Shown piece after piece: positions 21,280 to 25,647 of a stretch of 64,000 nt of DNA. The position numbers were made by a program, and so were the translations under genes. How positions within the stretch are numbered: the first letter of the stretch is position 1; each line of letters opens with the position of its first letter. Under the pieces are notes generated by a model. It did not search any database, was not told the DNA's origin, and saw nothing but the letters and a program-made list of their open reading frames with translations. The stretch is from Escherichia phage PBECO4, in sequence record KC295538, one strand, 5' to 3'.

Positions 21280-21580
21280 AACTCGTTCATCATTAACTAA
21301 ATTATATATTACTATATCACAAGTTTTTACCCCAATTTCCTCTAATGTAGGAGCATTATCTACTATAACATCTTTTACTGTATTTGCAACCTGTTTAGCA
21401 TCTGCTGCATATACATTAAAACTAAAAAGTACTAAAATAATACTTAAAAAAATACTTTTTCTATTATATATCCTTATTTTATTTTACATGTCATATCGGG
21501 TTGTGCTGGTTTATTATTTTTAAACGGATTAGGTTTTTTATTCTTTCTTTTTATCTTTTAAAGGTTTTTTGTCTTCTTTT

Positions 21581-21799
21581 TTATTCTTTATCTTTGTCTT
21601 TTTTATTTTTATCAGGTTCAGAGGGAGTATTACATTGTGCTGGGGGTTGATTAGTTGGAGTACAGCTATTGTCTGATGGGAGTATTACTTCTTTACAATT
21701 GTAAAATAGTAAACTTTTATTTGTGGTTAAATTATGAAAACGATAGTTACGTTCATTATTATAATAAATTGTTTTAGTACTTTCAATGTCATTGCACAT
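21581..21799 (-). CDS. hypothetical Cys-containing small protein (72 aa)
   Basis: Track ORF. Confidence 0.5.
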   Translation of the reverse strand: MCNDIESTKTIYYNNERNYRFHNLTTNKSLLFYNCKEVILPSDNSCTPTNQPPAQCNTPSEPDKNKKDKDKE

Positions 21800-21809
21800 T
21801 GCTACTGAA

Positions 21810-22061
21810 TCACCGGAACTCTTTTTCTATTCCCATTACATCAGTCTTACGCTCAGATAGTATACCTGAAGTATATGAATCTTTGTTGTCAAACGCATTA
21901 AATCCAATAGTTCTGTCGGTGTCGTGTATTATTCCTTTTGTGTATGAGGTAGTATAGAACTCCCCATTTCTGAAATCCTGCCTTGCTACTGAGCAATGAT
22001 AATCTGCACCATAAGCAGTACTGGAAAATAATACAATTCCAAATATAATATATTTTTTCAT
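21810..22061 (-). CDS. small secreted protein (signal peptide)
   Basis: MKKYIIFGIVLFSSTAYGADY... Confidence 0.65.
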   Translation of the reverse strand: MKKYIIFGIVLFSSTAYGADYHCSVARQDFRNGEFYTTSYTKGIIHDTDRTIGFNAFDNKDSYTSGILSERKTDVMGIEKEFR

Positions 22062-22090
22062 TGTAATCCCTCTTCTTAATTCCTCTTTTG

Positions 22091-22122
22091 TATTTACAAA
22101 AAAAGGCTGACCGAAGTCAACC
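22091..22122 (-). promoter_or_regulatory. terminator-promoter cassette (copy 5; weak -10)
   Basis: Hairpin 22105-22122 with TTGACT in stem. Confidence 0.5.
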
Positions 22123-22132
22123 TTTTAAATGT

Positions 22133-23644
22133 TTATTTTTTATCCTTTCCAACACCACTGTCGTACTCTTTGAATGAGTTATCAAGTGTAGTTAGTGCAT
22201 ACTCATATGCTTCTGGTGATTCAATGTCAACATCATCTGCACCATTTACTAAATCAGCCCACGCCTTTTGAAGTTTACGAGCATTGTTACCAACATTATC
22301 TTTAATCCAACTAATGTTTTTGTTGATACTTTTACGATCAGCACCTGCTTTTTTGCCAATCTCGGATATCCACATCATTAGCTTTTGAAGTTCATGAATT
22401 GATTTATCGGTCATTTCAAGATGTTCTTCTTCCATACCTTCGGAATCAGATGAACCAACGTCAATTCCATGTTTAGCTAATAGTTTACCAAGTTCAAAGA
22501 ATGCAGCTTCAGCAGGGAAGTCATAACCTTTCTCTTTGTAGTTATTCCATGCACTATCAAACTCGTCAACAAAACGGTTAGCATAATCTGGATTTTTAAC
22601 TAATGCTTTATATACTGCAATTGCATGTTCAAAACCTTCTTTATCTGACCCAAACTCTTCCATCTCAGGACGATGAATGTATCCATCCATATCAACGGTA
22701 TCAGGTAGTTCTTCTTGCTCAGGCTCAACATCTTTCTGTTCAACTGCACCCTCTTCATCTGCACGCTTTAGATAACCATCTGGTGTTACCTTCTCACCAT
22801 GTTCTGCTTCATACTTTTTCATAGTGTTGAATGCAGCATCCATAGCTGTTACGAAGCGACTTTTCTCACCTTGTACATAAGATTTAAGTGCACTGTTAAC
22901 TGCATCTGATACGAGCTTAACCTTATCGTCTTTACCTTCTAAACGGTTTTCAAGTTTAGCCAGTACATTCTTGACTTGCTGGGCATTAGCACGGTCCGCT
23001 TTACCAATATTATCAAAAGTTTTAAGAATACCATCAAGACTTGCTTCACCCTGTTCAGGTTCTTTGGAATCTTCTTTGTGTGTACCTTCAAGTGCACGCA
23101 TGATAGTACTGAATACTTCAGTTGGTTCAGTGCTCTTATTACCTTTCATTACATCAAGTACAGCTTGTGCTTTACCTTTGAGTTCTTCTTTAGGAACTGC
23201 CTGTAGTGCTTTGACAATACCCTGAATCAACTGTGGTTTGTTAGCAAAGATCTTACCTAAGTTATCTGATAACTCTTTAACAGGGTTAGCAGCTTTAGGT
23301 ACTTCTGCTTTTGGTTCTTCTTTAGGAACTGCTTGTTCTTTCTCAGCACGTTCCATATCAGCTAGGCGTTGTTTTTGTGTAGCATTAAGAAGTCCCAATG
23401 AATTAACATAACGTAGCTTTTCTAGCTCAGTCATGTTCTCAGTACTCTTAACTTCACCTGCTTCTGCGTTTGCTTTACCAGCTAGACCAGTTCCTTGGTT
23501 ACGTGACCCACGTGAACCTTGACCTGCTTGATAACTATTTGGACGGCGGTTGCGTTCACTCCATTTATCAGAGTGACCAGCCATGTTACCACCATTTTTA
23601 TCAGTAAAATTACTTGGCATTTGATTTCTCTCCATAGATTTCAT
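22133..23644 (-). CDS. large charged (K/E-rich) protein, 503 aa, unknown function
   Basis: Track ORF; low-complexity charged composition; shares a short motif with neighbouring 127-aa ORF. Confidence 0.7.
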   Translation of the reverse strand: MKSMERNQMPSNFTDKNGGNMAGHSDKWSERNRRPNSYQAGQGSRGSRNQGTGLAGKANAEAGEVKSTENMTELEKLRYVNSLGLLNATQKQRLADMERAEKEQAVPKEEPKAEVPKAANPVKELSDNLGKIFANKPQLIQGIVKALQAVPKEELKGKAQAVLDVMKGNKSTEPTEVFSTIMRALEGTHKEDSKEPEQGEASLDGILKTFDNIGKADRANAQQVKNVLAKLENRLEGKDDKVKLVSDAVNSALKSYVQGEKSRFVTAMDAAFNTMKKYEAEHGEKVTPDGYLKRADEEGAVEQKDVEPEQEELPDTVDMDGYIHRPEMEEFGSDKEGFEHAIAVYKALVKNPDYANRFVDEFDSAWNNYKEKGYDFPAEAAFFELGKLLAKHGIDVGSSDSEGMEEEHLEMTDKSIHELQKLMMWISEIGKKAGADRKSINKNISWIKDNVGNNARKLQKAWADLVNGADDVDIESPEAYEYALTTLDNSFKEYDSGVGKDKK

Positions 23645-23668
23645 TTTTTTCTCTATGTCTATATTTAT

Positions 23669-23699
23669 AGTATAAAGAAAAGGCTGACCGAAGTCAACC
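23669..23699 (-). promoter_or_regulatory. terminator-promoter cassette (copy 6; TTGACT-17-TATACT)
   Basis: Hairpin 23682-23699; -10 at 23674-23669. Confidence 0.65.
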
Positions 23700-23707
23700 T
23701 TATTTTG

Positions 23708-23821
23708 TTACTTAGATTGTTCTTGTGCAGGTGGATTTACTTTTTGATCCACTACATAGAATACACCACCAACCAGTACTGCGGCGATGAGTGCAGCAAC
23801 TACAAATTTTAAACCTTGCAT
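23708..23821 (-). CDS. possible small membrane protein (37 aa)
   Basis: ATG with GAGG SD; MQGLKFVVAALIAAVLVGGVFYVV...; below track size cut-off. Confidence 0.4.
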   Translation of the reverse strand: MQGLKFVVAALIAAVLVGGVFYVVDQKVNPPAQEQSK

Positions 23822-23850
23822 ATATGATACCTCAGTTATATTGAGAAGTT

Positions 23851-23883
23851 ATGATACAACAAAGGGCTGACCTTAGTCAACCC
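23851..23883 (-). promoter_or_regulatory. terminator-promoter cassette (copy 7; variant loop CTTA)
   Basis: gggctgaccttagtcaaccc 23864-23883. Confidence 0.55.
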
Positions 23884-23889
23884 TTTTTA

Positions 23890-24273
23890 TTACTTCTTGA
23901 ACTTATGTTTTTCACTTTCGATTGCATTCACGATTTCATCATGAATTTTACGAAGATTGTGAGTTTTCTTGAGAGAATCATGCAATGCACGGAATGCAGA
24001 GTGTACAGTTGCTTTAAAGTGCTCTTTAGGAGTTACTTTAAGTTTCTCGATAATATCACGTACATAGATTGGGTGATCCTCAAACACACGATTAAGCTCA
24101 TGACCTAGTGATTCTAGGCTAAATGCTTTTTCACGGGATGGACGATCATGTGCAAGACTTTGGTCTGGTTTTAGAAGACCTAGTGAATCTAGATACTTGT
24201 GCTTATGTGCATTGTCTAGACCAGAAATATCAACATCATGTGATGGATCTTTCTTATTCCATTTATCAACCAT
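23890..24273 (-). CDS. hypothetical basic protein (127 aa)
   Basis: Track ORF; contains YLDSLGLLKPDQ. Confidence 0.65.
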   Translation of the reverse strand: MVDKWNKKDPSHDVDISGLDNAHKHKYLDSLGLLKPDQSLAHDRPSREKAFSLESLGHELNRVFEDHPIYVRDIIEKLKVTPKEHFKATVHSAFRALHDSLKKTHNLRKIHDEIVNAIESEKHKFKK

Positions 24274-24388
24274 TTTTATAACTCCTATAAGAGATAAATT
24301 TTACTATAATATTTATAGTTCCGTTGTCATTTATATCGAATGACATAAAACATTATATCATAATAAGAATGGTTGTCCCAAAGTTAAA

Positions 24389-24862
24389 TTAGTACTGACC
24401 AAGTTCAGATGTAAAAATAAATGCATCCATGTCTTCCAACGTAAGTTTTAAGTCTGGTACATACTTAAGAATAACGCACTCTGGCTTCTTAATAGCAGCT
24501 TGATAAGCAGCAATGGCAAGGGATTCCAATTGCTGTGCTGTATAATTTTTACGTTCTGCATTAAAAACTTTGTTTTTGATATCACCACCTGGGAGTTTTT
24601 CAAACTCACGCATAACTGCGGTAAGAACATCGTCAGCAGTGTTACTATATACCCATTGGGGTAATTGCATTACATTATAAATCACACCACTATCATCCAT
24701 CAAAGAGATCCATTTGTACCCATCACTAGCACTGAACAAACGCCCTTTTAGTACTGTGTTATTAGTTAAATTTACAAATGCAAAAATATCTTGTTCGTTA
24801 AGTTCAATACTATTAACATTTACCCAACTCATTACGATTCCCCATTCATAAATCACGAACAA
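24389..24862 (-). CDS. hypothetical protein (157 aa)
   Basis: Track ORF. Confidence 0.65.
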   Translation of the reverse strand: MFVIYEWGIVMSWVNVNSIELNEQDIFAFVNLTNNTVLKGRLFSASDGYKWISLMDDSGVIYNVMQLPQWVYSNTADDVLTAVMREFEKLPGGDIKNKVFNAERKNYTAQQLESLAIAAYQAAIKKPECVILKYVPDLKLTLEDMDAFIFTSELGQY

Positions 24863-25442
24863 TATTCATTAAACACAATTTAGGTTTTATAGCATTCAAC
24901 ACCCATATGCATTCTTTGTAAGTAGCTATTATATCATCTAAATGCTCAGTTACAATGCTTTCTTGAAAATATTCTTCATCATTGAGCTTTGCTAATTTAG
25001 TAACATCACACGTAGGCACTATAGGTCTGGATTGTACACCCATTCCATTATTGATATTAGTGAAATGTACAAAATGGTACTTCACTACACCTTTATCTAG
25101 ATTTATTATACATGACAAATTTTCCAACTCAGTTAGTTTTTTATTACAAGTAACATTAATGAAACCAGCATTATAGGCTCTATAATCATCTACTGATATC
25201 TCAAAATCATTACGTTCAAATATAAGTGAAATGAGTTGGTCCAGTGGTTTGACATTCATATATTTTAATGAATTTACGTATGATACTTCAATCTTAGATG
25301 AAATTATCTTTTTACTAAGTGCAGTTAAATCTTTGTTAGATTTAACTGTTAAAACAATAGGTTTAAACCTAGAACTTTTGTTCTTTTTTGATACTTTAAA
25401 ACGACCTTTACGATTCATAATTTCCTCAATTAATAATTTCAC
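24846..25442 (-). CDS. hypothetical protein (198 aa)
   Basis: Track ORF. Confidence 0.65.
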   Translation of the reverse strand: MKLLIEEIMNRKGRFKVSKKNKSSRFKPIVLTVKSNKDLTALSKKIISSKIEVSYVNSLKYMNVKPLDQLISLIFERNDFEISVDDYRAYNAGFINVTCNKKLTELENLSCIINLDKGVVKYHFVHFTNINNGMGVQSRPIVPTCDVTKLAKLNDEEYFQESIVTEHLDDIIATYKECIWVLNAIKPKLCLMNIVRDL

Positions 25443-25647
25443 ATTTAACGTGTGGTTTATATAGCATAATTAACCCATTTTTAAGTACAATGATTGTTGC
25501 TCTGTTAGTAATCGAAACGTTTTTAATTATACTTTTTTTATATGTTTCAACATATTTCTCTTCATAATTTATACATTTAACATATTCTTTTTGTTTAGCA
25601 CTTACAACAGTACTGAATAATATCAGTACAAGTACTATATATTTCAT
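25426..25647 (-). CDS. small secreted protein (signal peptide)
   Basis: MKYIVLVLILFSTVVSAKQ... Confidence 0.6.
   Translation of the reverse strand: MKYIVLVLILFSTVVSAKQKEYVKCINYEEKYVETYKKSIIKNVSITNRATIIVLKNGLIMLYKPHVKCEIIN

Follow-up and report, generated by a model that had tools for sequence, protein, structure and literature searches.

Two neighbouring genes of a jumbo phage encode charged proteins that have a short internal motif, Y(V/L)(N/D)SLGLL, in common, and the question is what the resemblance means. The original prediction regarded the two proteins as otherwise unrelated and suggested that the motif may be a common processing, targeting or binding site. The stretch of DNA analysed here (64 kb, hereafter the window) belongs to an Asteriusvirus (RaK2/121Q-type) jumbo coliphage and shows 98.7% identity to 121Q.

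The gene pair and its common motif

The large gene (positions 22133 to 23644, minus strand) corresponds to 121Q gp201 and phAPEC6 gp035c, has PHROG matches and encodes 503 amino acids from its first ATG. Its real start is most likely Met9 (ATG at 23620), because this codon is preceded at a distance of 9 nt by a GGAGAG Shine-Dalgarno sequence, every homologue starts with MP(S/G)xF and the 121Q annotation of gp201 gives 495 aa. From Met9, the protein has 495 aa, a mass of 54.9 kDa and a pI of 5.1. The small gene (23890 to 24273, minus strand; 121Q gp199, phAPEC6 gp037c) encodes 127 aa (14.8 kDa, pI 9.05). A hydrophobic 37-aa ORF lying between them (23708 to 23821, minus strand; 121Q gp200, phAPEC6 gp036c) is outside the family, and a profile scan of it gave no credible family match. 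Both motif-bearing genes lie outside the structural-gene block, with small non-structural ORFs as neighbours and the tail and fibre block far off.

The motif reads KLRYVNSLGLL in the large protein (23387 to 23419, minus strand), where it comprises the end of a short helix and an L-G-L-L cap, and KHKYLDSLGLL in the homologous stretch of the small protein according to the alignments (24172 to 24204, minus strand). The core sequences YVNSLGLL (23387 to 23410) and YLDSLGLL (24172 to 24195) were confirmed in the ORFs to which they had been assigned, within the stretches LRYVNSLGLLNATQ of the 503-aa ORF and KYLDSLGLLKPDQ of the 127-aa ORF. The charged sequence noted behind each motif is also present, as a Pro/Glu/Lys-rich stretch that follows it in both proteins.

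The view that the neighbours are otherwise unrelated did not survive profile comparison. PHROG 16530 (168 positions) matched residues 9-188 of the large protein (E = 5e-38) and residues 6-124 of the small protein (E = 6e-56), and PHROG 20398 matched the large protein with an E-value of 2e-250. BLASTP aligned the two proteins across about 110 residues downstream of the motif (E = 5e-8). When the motif was left out and only the bundles were compared by hhalign, the first bundle of the large protein and the small-protein family were still matched with 94.2% probability (E = 1.2e-7). A 171-aa protein, P0013, bridges the pair with 43% identity to residues 9-186 of the large protein and 54% identity to the small one. 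At least 12 columns are invariant across both paralogues in alignments A2 and A3, and K68, Y71, L75, G76, L121, F125, P129, I135, L139 and P143 are invariant in both paralogues as well as in CBB, BF and RaK2. Both proteins show the same signature, namely the motif, then a linker, then a helical bundle with F...P.....I...L...P. Judged by sequence comparison, the two neighbouring genes are tandem paralogues, and the 127-aa protein is homologous over its entire length to the N-terminal ~180 residues of the large protein. Therefore, the motif is common to both by descent. In this respect the result is largely ordinary: two duplicates lying side by side have preserved the part of their common domain that is under the strongest constraint.

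When the window was scanned in all six frames, Y[VLIM][NDE]SLG occurred only in these two ORFs. Genome-wide scans were performed on OR844650.1, which is 99.7% identical and of which 349,999 bp were covered, the last 1,993 bp being left out. The strict pattern had three matches in this genome against 0.075 expected from shuffles; the third, at the C-terminus of a Dam-like methyltransferase ORF, is probably a chance match. The family form of the motif, K-x-K/R-Y-Phi-x-x-L-G-L-Phi, was found among the credible ORFs of OR844650.1 only in the two paralogues. Likewise, a six-frame scan of the ~350-kb genome with our own family HMM retrieved the large protein (E = 2e-67) and the small protein (E = 9e-40), followed by a next best hit at E = 0.12, and uncovered no third carrier of the motif-bearing domain. 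The original prediction had named restriction of the motif to these two proteins by chance, together with a lack of cleavage or co-localisation, as the outcome that would count against it. The restriction holds among credible ORFs, but chance does not explain it, given homology over at least 110 residues and the shuffle expectation of 0.075 for a pattern seen three times. Apart from the shortness of the motif nothing speaks for a fortuitous resemblance, the probability of which is negligible.

Layout and distribution of the family

Both proteins consist of an N-terminal tail, a short helix ending in the motif, a charged Pro/Glu/Lys-rich linker and a four-helix bundle. The tail of the large protein is rich in Gly, Ser, Arg and Asn (aa 1-58 from Met9; 23447 to 23620, minus strand), is predicted to be disordered (AlphaFold2 pLDDT <50) and contains the conserved elements GHSDKW and SRNQGTG (alignments A2, A3 and A4), while the small protein is devoid of most of it. 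In the AlphaFold2 models, the motif helix spans residues 21-30 in the small protein and 65-74 in the large protein; a loop directly follows, and the confidence at the motif is 54-62 and 74-79, respectively. The first bundle of the large protein (D1, aa 113-177; 23090 to 23284, minus strand) is predicted to contain helices at 113-124, 129-140, 144-160 and 166-177. Its homologue in the small protein is the bundle at aa 44-126 (23896 to 24144, minus strand; pLDDT about 80-90), with predicted helices at 44-63, 68-79, 83-103 and 107-126. The C-terminal extension of the large protein (22148 to 23038, minus strand) contributes a further three predicted helical bundles (aa 195-274, 327-383 and 405-491) joined by disordered acidic linkers, so that the whole protein is predicted as beads-on-a-string of helical bundles. 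Among these four bundles, the best internal repeat (D2 against D4) reached a probability of 39%, which is not significant. The number of bundle modules differs between closely related phages: phAPEC6 has 52 nt in place of positions 22417-22726 of the window, while the surrounding DNA is ~95% identical.

A search with the family profile, which has 525 positions and, by including C-terminal columns, is wider than the N-terminal module, picked out 34 representatives from 1.84 billion proteins. No other 11-residue window of this family is as conserved as the motif (mean top-residue fraction 0.81). The tblastn search retrieved 68 phage records, all from RaK2-like jumbo phages, to which the family is confined in the sequences searched. 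The members of PHROG 16530/20398, annotated as 'virion structural protein', have the same layout and are direct homologues (HMM E-values of 1e-38 to 1e-250); they include CBB_38, GAP32_032, RaK2 ORF275, Serratia phage BF gp027, 121Q gp199/gp201 and phAPEC6 gp035c/gp037c. CBB, BF and GAP32 carry the module as a stand-alone protein of ~155-172 aa, and the members P0098 to P0101 have the N-terminal tail and the motif region without a bundle.

The published accounts examined describe no function, virion location or motif for this PHROG 16530/20398 family. Pfam and NCBIfam scans of both proteins gave no hit above threshold, the matches to Inhibitor_I34, Tau95, UPF0236 and sulfite reductase being noise. 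A PDB sequence search with the family profile gave nothing below E = 0.18 and no homologue in solved phage structures. Using Foldseek, the model of the small protein matched nothing in the PDB below E = 1.8, the hits being generic bundles (the DAXX DHB and PABC/MLLE domains), and the model of the large protein retrieved only family members from BFVD. The label 'chromosome segregation protein / SMC' given in phAPEC6 has no profile support and was regarded as a spurious charged-helix match. The cryo-EM paper on phiKp24 names no inner body, internal protein or family homologue, and a literature search for a high-resolution Asteriusvirus structure found none.

Late promoters, virion presence and fate of the motif

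An exact T4-type late-promoter box, TATAAATA, lies 36 nt upstream of the ATG of the small gene (24310 to 24317, minus strand), and another lies 41 nt upstream of the Met9 ATG of the large gene (23662 to 23669, minus strand). The window contains only three copies of this sequence against 13.6 expected, and two of the three are those just upstream of the paralogue genes. The third (63548, plus strand) was rejected as a promoter; it lies within a minus-strand ORF in antisense orientation, with no gene behind it. Genome-wide, 12 of the 14 sites have an ORF of at least 40 aa within 70 nt downstream, and the genes behind them include those for the gp23 capsid protein (Pfam E = 1e-89), a scaffold-like 371-aa ORF, a lysozyme and a T4-type baseplate protein. 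According to the CBB paper, this clade has a late motif of the sequence ATAAATA as well as a sigma factor resembling gp55. Both paralogue genes are thus predicted from their promoters to be expressed late. The CBB and BF orthologues are preceded by a perfect sigma70-type promoter, TTGACA-N18-TATAAT, in place of TATAAATA, suggesting that the timing of the orthologues may differ. Terminator-like hairpins border both genes. GGTTGACTAAGGTCAGCC, followed by a T-run, is located after the small gene (23865 to 23882, minus strand) and has a -35-like TTGACT hexamer in its stem, and GGTTGACTTCGGTCAGCC occurs twice, immediately upstream of the late promoter of the large gene (23682 to 23699, minus strand) and directly after its stop codon (22105 to 22122, minus strand).

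Virion proteomics had been proposed as a check of whether both proteins are packaged. According to phAPEC6, JP4 and the 121Q annotation, both are, as judged from the published proteomes of orthologues in relatives of the present isolate. In phAPEC6 virions, mass spectrometry detected gp035c with 8 peptides and gp037c with 5 peptides (48.0% coverage); a back-calculation from the latter values allowed 1,967 peptide-set solutions. The JP4 virion LC-MS/MS list, whose supplement contains protein-level data only, includes JP4_541 and JP4_543, and both proteins are annotated as virion structural proteins in 121Q. In CBB virions, CBB_38 was detected with 9 peptides (56.6% coverage), and DataSheet5 of the CBB paper flags GAP32_032 and RaK2 ORF275 in what we read as MS-detection columns. 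A signature and a domain layout are now defined for this clade-specific virion family, which has proteomic support in at least five phages, 121Q being represented by annotation only.

If the motif were a common processing site, cleavage by a prohead protease would be expected at or near it. T4-type proteases cut after Glu in L/I-x-E, and the motif is devoid of Glu, which a T4 gp21-type prohead protease would be expected to require at P1. A gp21-like protease does exist in the clade, where processing shortens the capsid protein from 42 to 37 kDa, which lends the idea some initial appeal; however, the capsid protein of this phage carries L-T-E↓S at residue 43, which fits this shift. More directly, the raw peptide data of CBB virions contain a fully tryptic peptide, SLGLMPGAEPTPEPEVQPEPKPER (SLGLM...PER), that runs from inside the motif through the entire linker, and a peptide from just upstream of the motif, LNTMPSQGVDTSK, was found in the same gel slices. 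This evidence concerns the CBB orthologue, a distant relative with ~38% identity. Since the CBB virion protein retains the motif in its mature form, the peptides indicate that the motif is not a cleavage site in CBB virions, which rules it out as a maturation site in that phage, and the suggestion of a common processing site is contradicted as far as the CBB data reach. In the CBB virion data, the first 49 residues of CBB_38 are not covered by any peptide; therefore, N-terminal trimming upstream of the motif may occur. The same gap could be cited for cleavage at the motif, but we consider such cleavage highly improbable. In 121Q-type virions, KLRYVNSLGLLNATQK and YLDSLGLLKPDQSLAHDRPSR are the stretches whose peptide coverage bears on retention of the motif.

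Possible roles of the motif

We favour, with a probability of roughly 0.55, an explanation in which the motif helix docks the module to a head-assembly partner and both proteins are internal head components. The helix would serve as a docking element that fixes the module to its partner during head assembly. This partner may be the core or scaffold of the prohead, the gp23-type shell on its inner side, or adjacent bundle copies. The module itself would then act in packaging or anchoring. Because both proteins are packaged and the motif is the conservation peak of the family, a binding or docking role specific to the family is plausible. Several features are consistent with a location inside the head: the genes have their own late promoters although they are not part of the structural-gene block, the proteins combine a high charge and an all-helical fold with disordered tails, and the number of modules varies inside DNA that is ~95% identical. 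In addition, 121Q and phAPEC6 have an inner body of 91 x 18 nm visible by bubblegram imaging. On this reading, we put both proteins forward as candidates for inner-body components or other internal head proteins in 121Q-type phages. Against the docking proposal, the AlphaFold2 confidence at the motif is limited in both proteins, the helix may do no more than pack against its own bundle, and the sigma70-type promoter of the CBB and BF orthologues points to a possibly different timing. A bolder version, which we hold only tentatively and regard as rather doubtful, is that the N-terminal tail, the KYxxLGLL helix and the bundle form a portable head-packaging module of RaK2-like phages whose carriers build the inner body. 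The motif helix would then attach to the core of the prohead, or to the gp23-type shell from within, in the manner of a T4 capsid targeting sequence (CTS) or an encapsulin cargo peptide, while being internal and not removed.

The possibility that the helix packs on its own bundle deserves weight as an explanation in itself, and we consider it possible though on balance unlikely. The motif would be an intramolecular fold element, a helix C-cap kept for folding or stability, as would suit a short amphipathic helix with a Gly cap and, in most members, an S/T-P-E-E N-cap, which AlphaFold2 places right before a loop and which occurs only inside the family. The variable Pro-rich linker of 10-40 residues that parts the motif from the bundle is, however, predicted to be disordered, P0098 to P0101 keep the tail and motif region without any bundle, and the motif of the small protein is modelled with low confidence. 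Alternatively, the proteins may be external or tail-associated, as a capsid decoration, an anchor of hair-like fibres or a tail accessory, with the motif as the attachment site. Mass spectrometry shows virion association only, and phAPEC6, 121Q and CBB carry unusual fibres without assigned proteins, both of which would suit an external location. Nevertheless, RaK2 and GAP32, for which whiskers are not reported, have members of the family as well, no known fibre or decoration fold resembles short helical bundles joined by disordered charged linkers, and the genes are far from the tail and fibre gene block; while these points are not decisive, we regard an external location as an unlikely one. 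A targeting role had also been suggested, and in its general form the motif would be a tag on many unrelated packaged proteins, like the T4 CTS. Both carriers are indeed packaged and predicted to be late-expressed, but the motif is internal rather than N-terminal, the domain and the family pattern recur in no third credible ORF of the 350-kb genome (next best E = 0.12), and the extra match in the Dam-like methyltransferase ORF is probably due to chance. The idea of a general tag is not supported by these scans, and we give it very little credence.

The T4 internal proteins IPI, IPII, IPIII and Alt offer a parallel to the preferred docking explanation; they too are packaged and charged, and their late-promoter genes are located outside the main head-gene block. 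They have a common N-terminal element followed by variable downstream sequence, as do the paralogues here. The T4 CTS consists of ~10 residues at the extreme N-terminus, is common to non-homologous proteins and is removed by gp21 after Glu. By contrast, the conserved element here is internal (at residue ~27 or ~70), lies within a homologous module 120-180 residues long, stays in the CBB protein after maturation and is absent from other proteins of the genome. Of the T4-type features, the late promoter is found here, and an extreme N-terminal tag and removal after Glu are not, the latter as judged from the CBB peptides and the Glu-free motif. If the module suffices for packaging, it may allow foreign proteins to be loaded into jumbo-phage heads, as has been done with the T4 CTS. 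Encapsulin cargo-loading peptides are short Gly/Leu-containing anchors, usually C-terminal, that bind the inside of an HK97-fold shell. The analogy lies in a short hydrophobic Gly-containing peptide, a flexible linker to the cargo and an HK97-fold shell; the encapsulin peptides differ in their usual C-terminal position and their consensus, and capsid binding by the present motif is putative.

Jumbo phages with an inner body and scattered virion-protein paralogues are also known from the inner-body and ejection families of phiKZ, 201phi2-1 and SPN3US. Neither sequence nor fold searches (Pfam, NCBIfam, PDB and BFVD) detected homology to these families, and the phAPEC6 paper reported no phiKZ inner-body homologues. 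The inner-body proteins of phiKZ are cleaved at S/A/G-x-E, whereas no cleavage was seen in the present family. In a further difference from the phiKZ type, the capsid and protease of the present phage are T4-type.

Tandem paralogues of a clade-restricted virion protein family

The large gene at 22133-23644 (-) and the small gene at 23890-24273 (-) are tandem paralogues. Over 21500-25000, identity reached 99.7% with Escherichia phage ECO103 4-12-1 and 98.7% with phage 121Q, an Asteriusvirus (RaK2-like jumbo myovirus, ~350 kb) in which the two ORFs correspond to gp201 and gp199, respectively, both annotated as "virion structural protein". Both ORFs and both motif strings, YVNSLGLL (23387-23410, -) and YLDSLGLL (24172-24195, -), were found where the original prediction had placed them. 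The proteins had been regarded as otherwise unrelated; instead, their homology extends well beyond the motif. PHROG 16530 matched residues 9-188 of the large protein (E = 5e-38) and 6-124 of the small one (E = 6e-56), BLASTP aligned the two over ~110 residues downstream of the motif (E = 5e-8), and a profile-profile comparison of the helical bundle only, with the motif left out, gave a probability of 94%. Residues W20, K68, Y71, L75, G76, L121, F125, P129, I135, L139, P143 and A176 were invariant in a multiple alignment of both subfamilies. These comparisons, together with long forms of the small subfamily (P0013, 171 aa; P0085, 169 aa) that keep a Gly/Ser/Arg/Asn-rich N-tail lost from the 127-aa small paralogue, define a common layout: the N-tail (GHSDKW...SRNQGTG...), then D-T-S-K-M-x-P-E-E-K-L-K-Y-F-x-S-L-G-L-L, a Pro/Glu/Lys linker and a four-helix bundle. 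The third ATG (Met9, 23620) is the probable start of the large gene, giving 495 aa, because a GGAGAG Shine-Dalgarno sequence lies 9 nt upstream, every homologue begins with MP(S/G)xF and the 121Q protein is annotated with 495 aa.

The small protein was predicted to be disordered at residues 1-16, followed by a helix (21-30) ending in the motif, a loop and a four-helix bundle (44-126, pLDDT 80-90). In the large protein, a disordered region (1-58) and the motif helix (65-74, pLDDT 74-79) were predicted to precede four small helical bundles with disordered acidic linkers between them; the pTM of this model was 0.29, which indicates that its domains would have no fixed arrangement. Searches of PDB and BFVD returned no structural or sequence neighbours beyond the family's own members. 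Inside the large gene, the 310 nt at 22417-22726 are replaced by 52 nt in phAPEC6-type compared with 121Q-type genomes, with flanks ~95% identical, and one predicted bundle is consequently gone in phAPEC6. Other variants range from 413 to 606 aa, and overlapping BLAST matches in one of them (P0020) are consistent with a duplicated bundle. The variant lengths and the bundle removal in phAPEC6 show that modules are gained and lost as the C-terminal half evolves.

Among 1.84 billion representative proteins, searched exhaustively with the family profile, 34 members were found, and tblastn against 50,697 phage records gave 68 matches, every one a RaK2-like jumbo phage (Asterius-, Alcyoneus-, Mimas- and Eneladusvirus, Xanthomonas phage XbC2, and Salmonella phages Munch and 7t3). 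The family is thus restricted to one clade. The module stands alone in CBB gp038 (172 aa), BF gp027 (155 aa) and GAP32, and is fused to helical C-terminal extensions in RaK2 ORF275 (565 aa), K64-1 and the Asteriusviruses. Among the loci examined, two adjacent copies occurred only in Asteriusviruses (this window, 121Q and phAPEC6).

Late-promoter cassettes at both paralogues

The sequence TATAAATA, the T4 late-promoter consensus, occurred three times in the window, fewer than the 13.6 expected. Two of these sites, both on the coding strand, lie at 24310-24317 (-), 36 nt upstream of the small gene's start codon, and at 23662-23669 (-), 41 nt upstream of that of the large gene. In the near-identical complete genome OR844650.1, only 14 sites were found in 350 kb, 12 of them with an ORF of 40 aa or more within 70 nt downstream (L006-L012). 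The genes behind them include a gp23-type major capsid protein (Pfam E = 1e-89), a lysozyme, a T4-type baseplate protein, two ORFs of 800-900 aa and a 371-aa charged coiled protein that we take to be the scaffold. Since the sequence is strongly depleted and nearly all copies stand shortly upstream of late genes, an exact match can serve in this phage to mark strong late promoters. Independently, the CBB paper describes for this clade both a late motif, ATAAATA, and a sigma factor resembling gp55. The clade does not share one mode of regulation: instead of a late promoter, a perfect sigma70 promoter, TTGACA-N18-TATAAT, overlapping an inverted repeat CCCCTAA...TTAGGGG, stands before both CBB gp038, which lies within the terminal repeat, and BF gp027 (L003:2880-3000 and L005:2880-3000).

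A hairpin, GGTTGACTnnGGTCAGCC, directly follows the small gene, the large gene and a 37-aa ORF between them. Its general form, GGTTGACT(TC/AA)GGTCAGCC, was found eight times in the window against zero expected, always on the coding strand (14104, 15894, 16818, 21016, 22105, 23682, 23865 and 27107, all -), and the copies checked stood directly behind stop codons. The stem contains a -35-like TTGACT, followed 17-18 nt later by a -10-like hexamer in the copies at 23682 and 23865. The hairpins have the appearance of cassettes that join a terminator to a promoter and bracket single genes. They resemble the "promoter-early stem-loop" (PeSL) elements of T4.

Virion packaging and role of the motif

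Virion proteomics, proposed earlier as a check, detected orthologues of both paralogues in the virions of phAPEC6 and JP4. ESI-MS/MS of phAPEC6 identified gp035c (46.4 kDa, 8 peptides, 28.8%) and gp037c (14.8 kDa, 5 peptides, 48%), whose orthology to the pair was confirmed by coordinates, and the JP4 LC-MS/MS list includes JP4_541 (127 aa, 4 peptides) and JP4_543 (417 aa). For CBB_38, nine peptides with 56.6% coverage were reported in the CBB paper; GAP32_032 and RaK2 ORF275 are flagged in its comparison table, in columns that appear to denote MS detection. Eight of the nine CBB_38 peptides were identified directly in the raw peptide table (PMC5259590 DataSheet6), and with AVFAAYR added as the presumed ninth they cover 107 of 189 residues, the published 56.6%.

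The peptide data contradict the suggestion that the motif is a processing site. In CBB, SLGLMPGAEPTPEPEVQPEPKPER reaches from the motif's second half across the entire linker, and LNTMPSQGVDTSK, from just upstream of the motif, was present in the same gel slices; therefore, the motif is retained in the mature protein and is not a cleavage site there. The first 49 residues of CBB_38 gave no peptide in any gel slice (PMC5259590 DataSheet6), with zero occurrences of NSATLAGHSDK, SASSHDAGQGSR, NQGTGIQGK, WSNSNR and PGTFR in the table. This N-tail would yield three tryptic peptides of a suitable size, and the first peptide after it was detected 12 times. The missing peptides may reflect trimming, modification or just poor detection of very hydrophilic peptides.

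Across all reading frames of the window, Y[VL][ND]SLGLL was confined to the pair. A relaxed strict pattern gave three matches in the 349,999 bp of OR844650.1 against 0.075 expected from residue shuffles, which, with the homology beyond the motif, contradicts a chance resemblance of the pair. The sole match besides the pair, itself probably due to chance, is the C-terminus (...INYLKSLGLVMKNL) of an ORF beyond the window (OR844650.1 260324-260875, -) that encodes a Dam-like DNA methyltransferase containing an NPPY motif. Among credible ORFs, the wider family pattern matched the two paralogues only, one extra match being a spurious 31-aa ORF. A general targeting tag is likewise contradicted, because a whole-genome HMM scan recovered the pair (E = 2e-67 and 9e-40) and no third domain copy (next best E = 0.12).

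The motif is the most conserved 11-residue window of the 30-sequence family alignment. It would form a short amphipathic helix with an L-G-L-L cap, tethered through the flexible linker, and may dock with an assembly partner, since it is conserved even in members without the bundle (P0098 to P0101). The main rival, in which the helix does no more than pack against its own bundle, seems possible to us, if rather unlikely. Both proteins might be internal head components. This role has circumstantial backing: each gene stands apart from the structural block yet has a late promoter of its own, both products combine charge, a modular helical build and disordered tails, no solved phage structure contains a member of the family, and 121Q and phAPEC6 possess an inner body that such proteins could be part of. 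We consider a tail, fibre or surface location unlikely. The explanation as a whole, including paralogy, clade restriction, late promoters and motif retention, is given a probability of about 0.55, against roughly one chance in three for the docking and head-internal mechanism, because the descriptive core is solid.

Catalogues already list the PHROG 16530/20398 family under virion structural proteins. By analogy, it may work most like T4 internal proteins or the phiKZ inner-body paralogue families. However, it falls outside both, because its motif is not an N-terminal tag common to unrelated cargo as in T4, the motif stays in the mature CBB protein and homology to either system is absent. We therefore class the family as packaged, late-expressed, paralogous phage virion proteins.

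Surroundings of the gene pair

The neighbours of the pair, all on the same strand, are small hypothetical ORFs, a T7 gp0.7-like kinase and denV. The hydrophobic 37-aa ORF between the paralogues (MQGLKFVVAALIAAVLVGGVFYVVDQKVNPPAQEQSK; 23708-23821, -) has its own flanking hairpins and counterparts in 121Q gp200 and phAPEC6 gp036c, and probably encodes a small membrane peptide. The small ORFs adjoining the pair at 21810-22061 (-) and 25426-25647 (-) have signal-peptide-like starts (MKKYIIFGIVLFSSTAYG... and MKYIVLVLILFSTVVSA..., respectively) and may encode secreted proteins or lipoproteins. At ~10 kb of the window, GC skew changes sign and the coding strand switches, with the ORFs of 1-10000 on the plus strand. 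The plus-strand ORFs of 300-400 aa upstream of this point (e.g. around 3653, 8310 and 9849) probably correspond to the RCC1-like "DNA condensation" virion proteins listed as phAPEC6 gp003-gp010.
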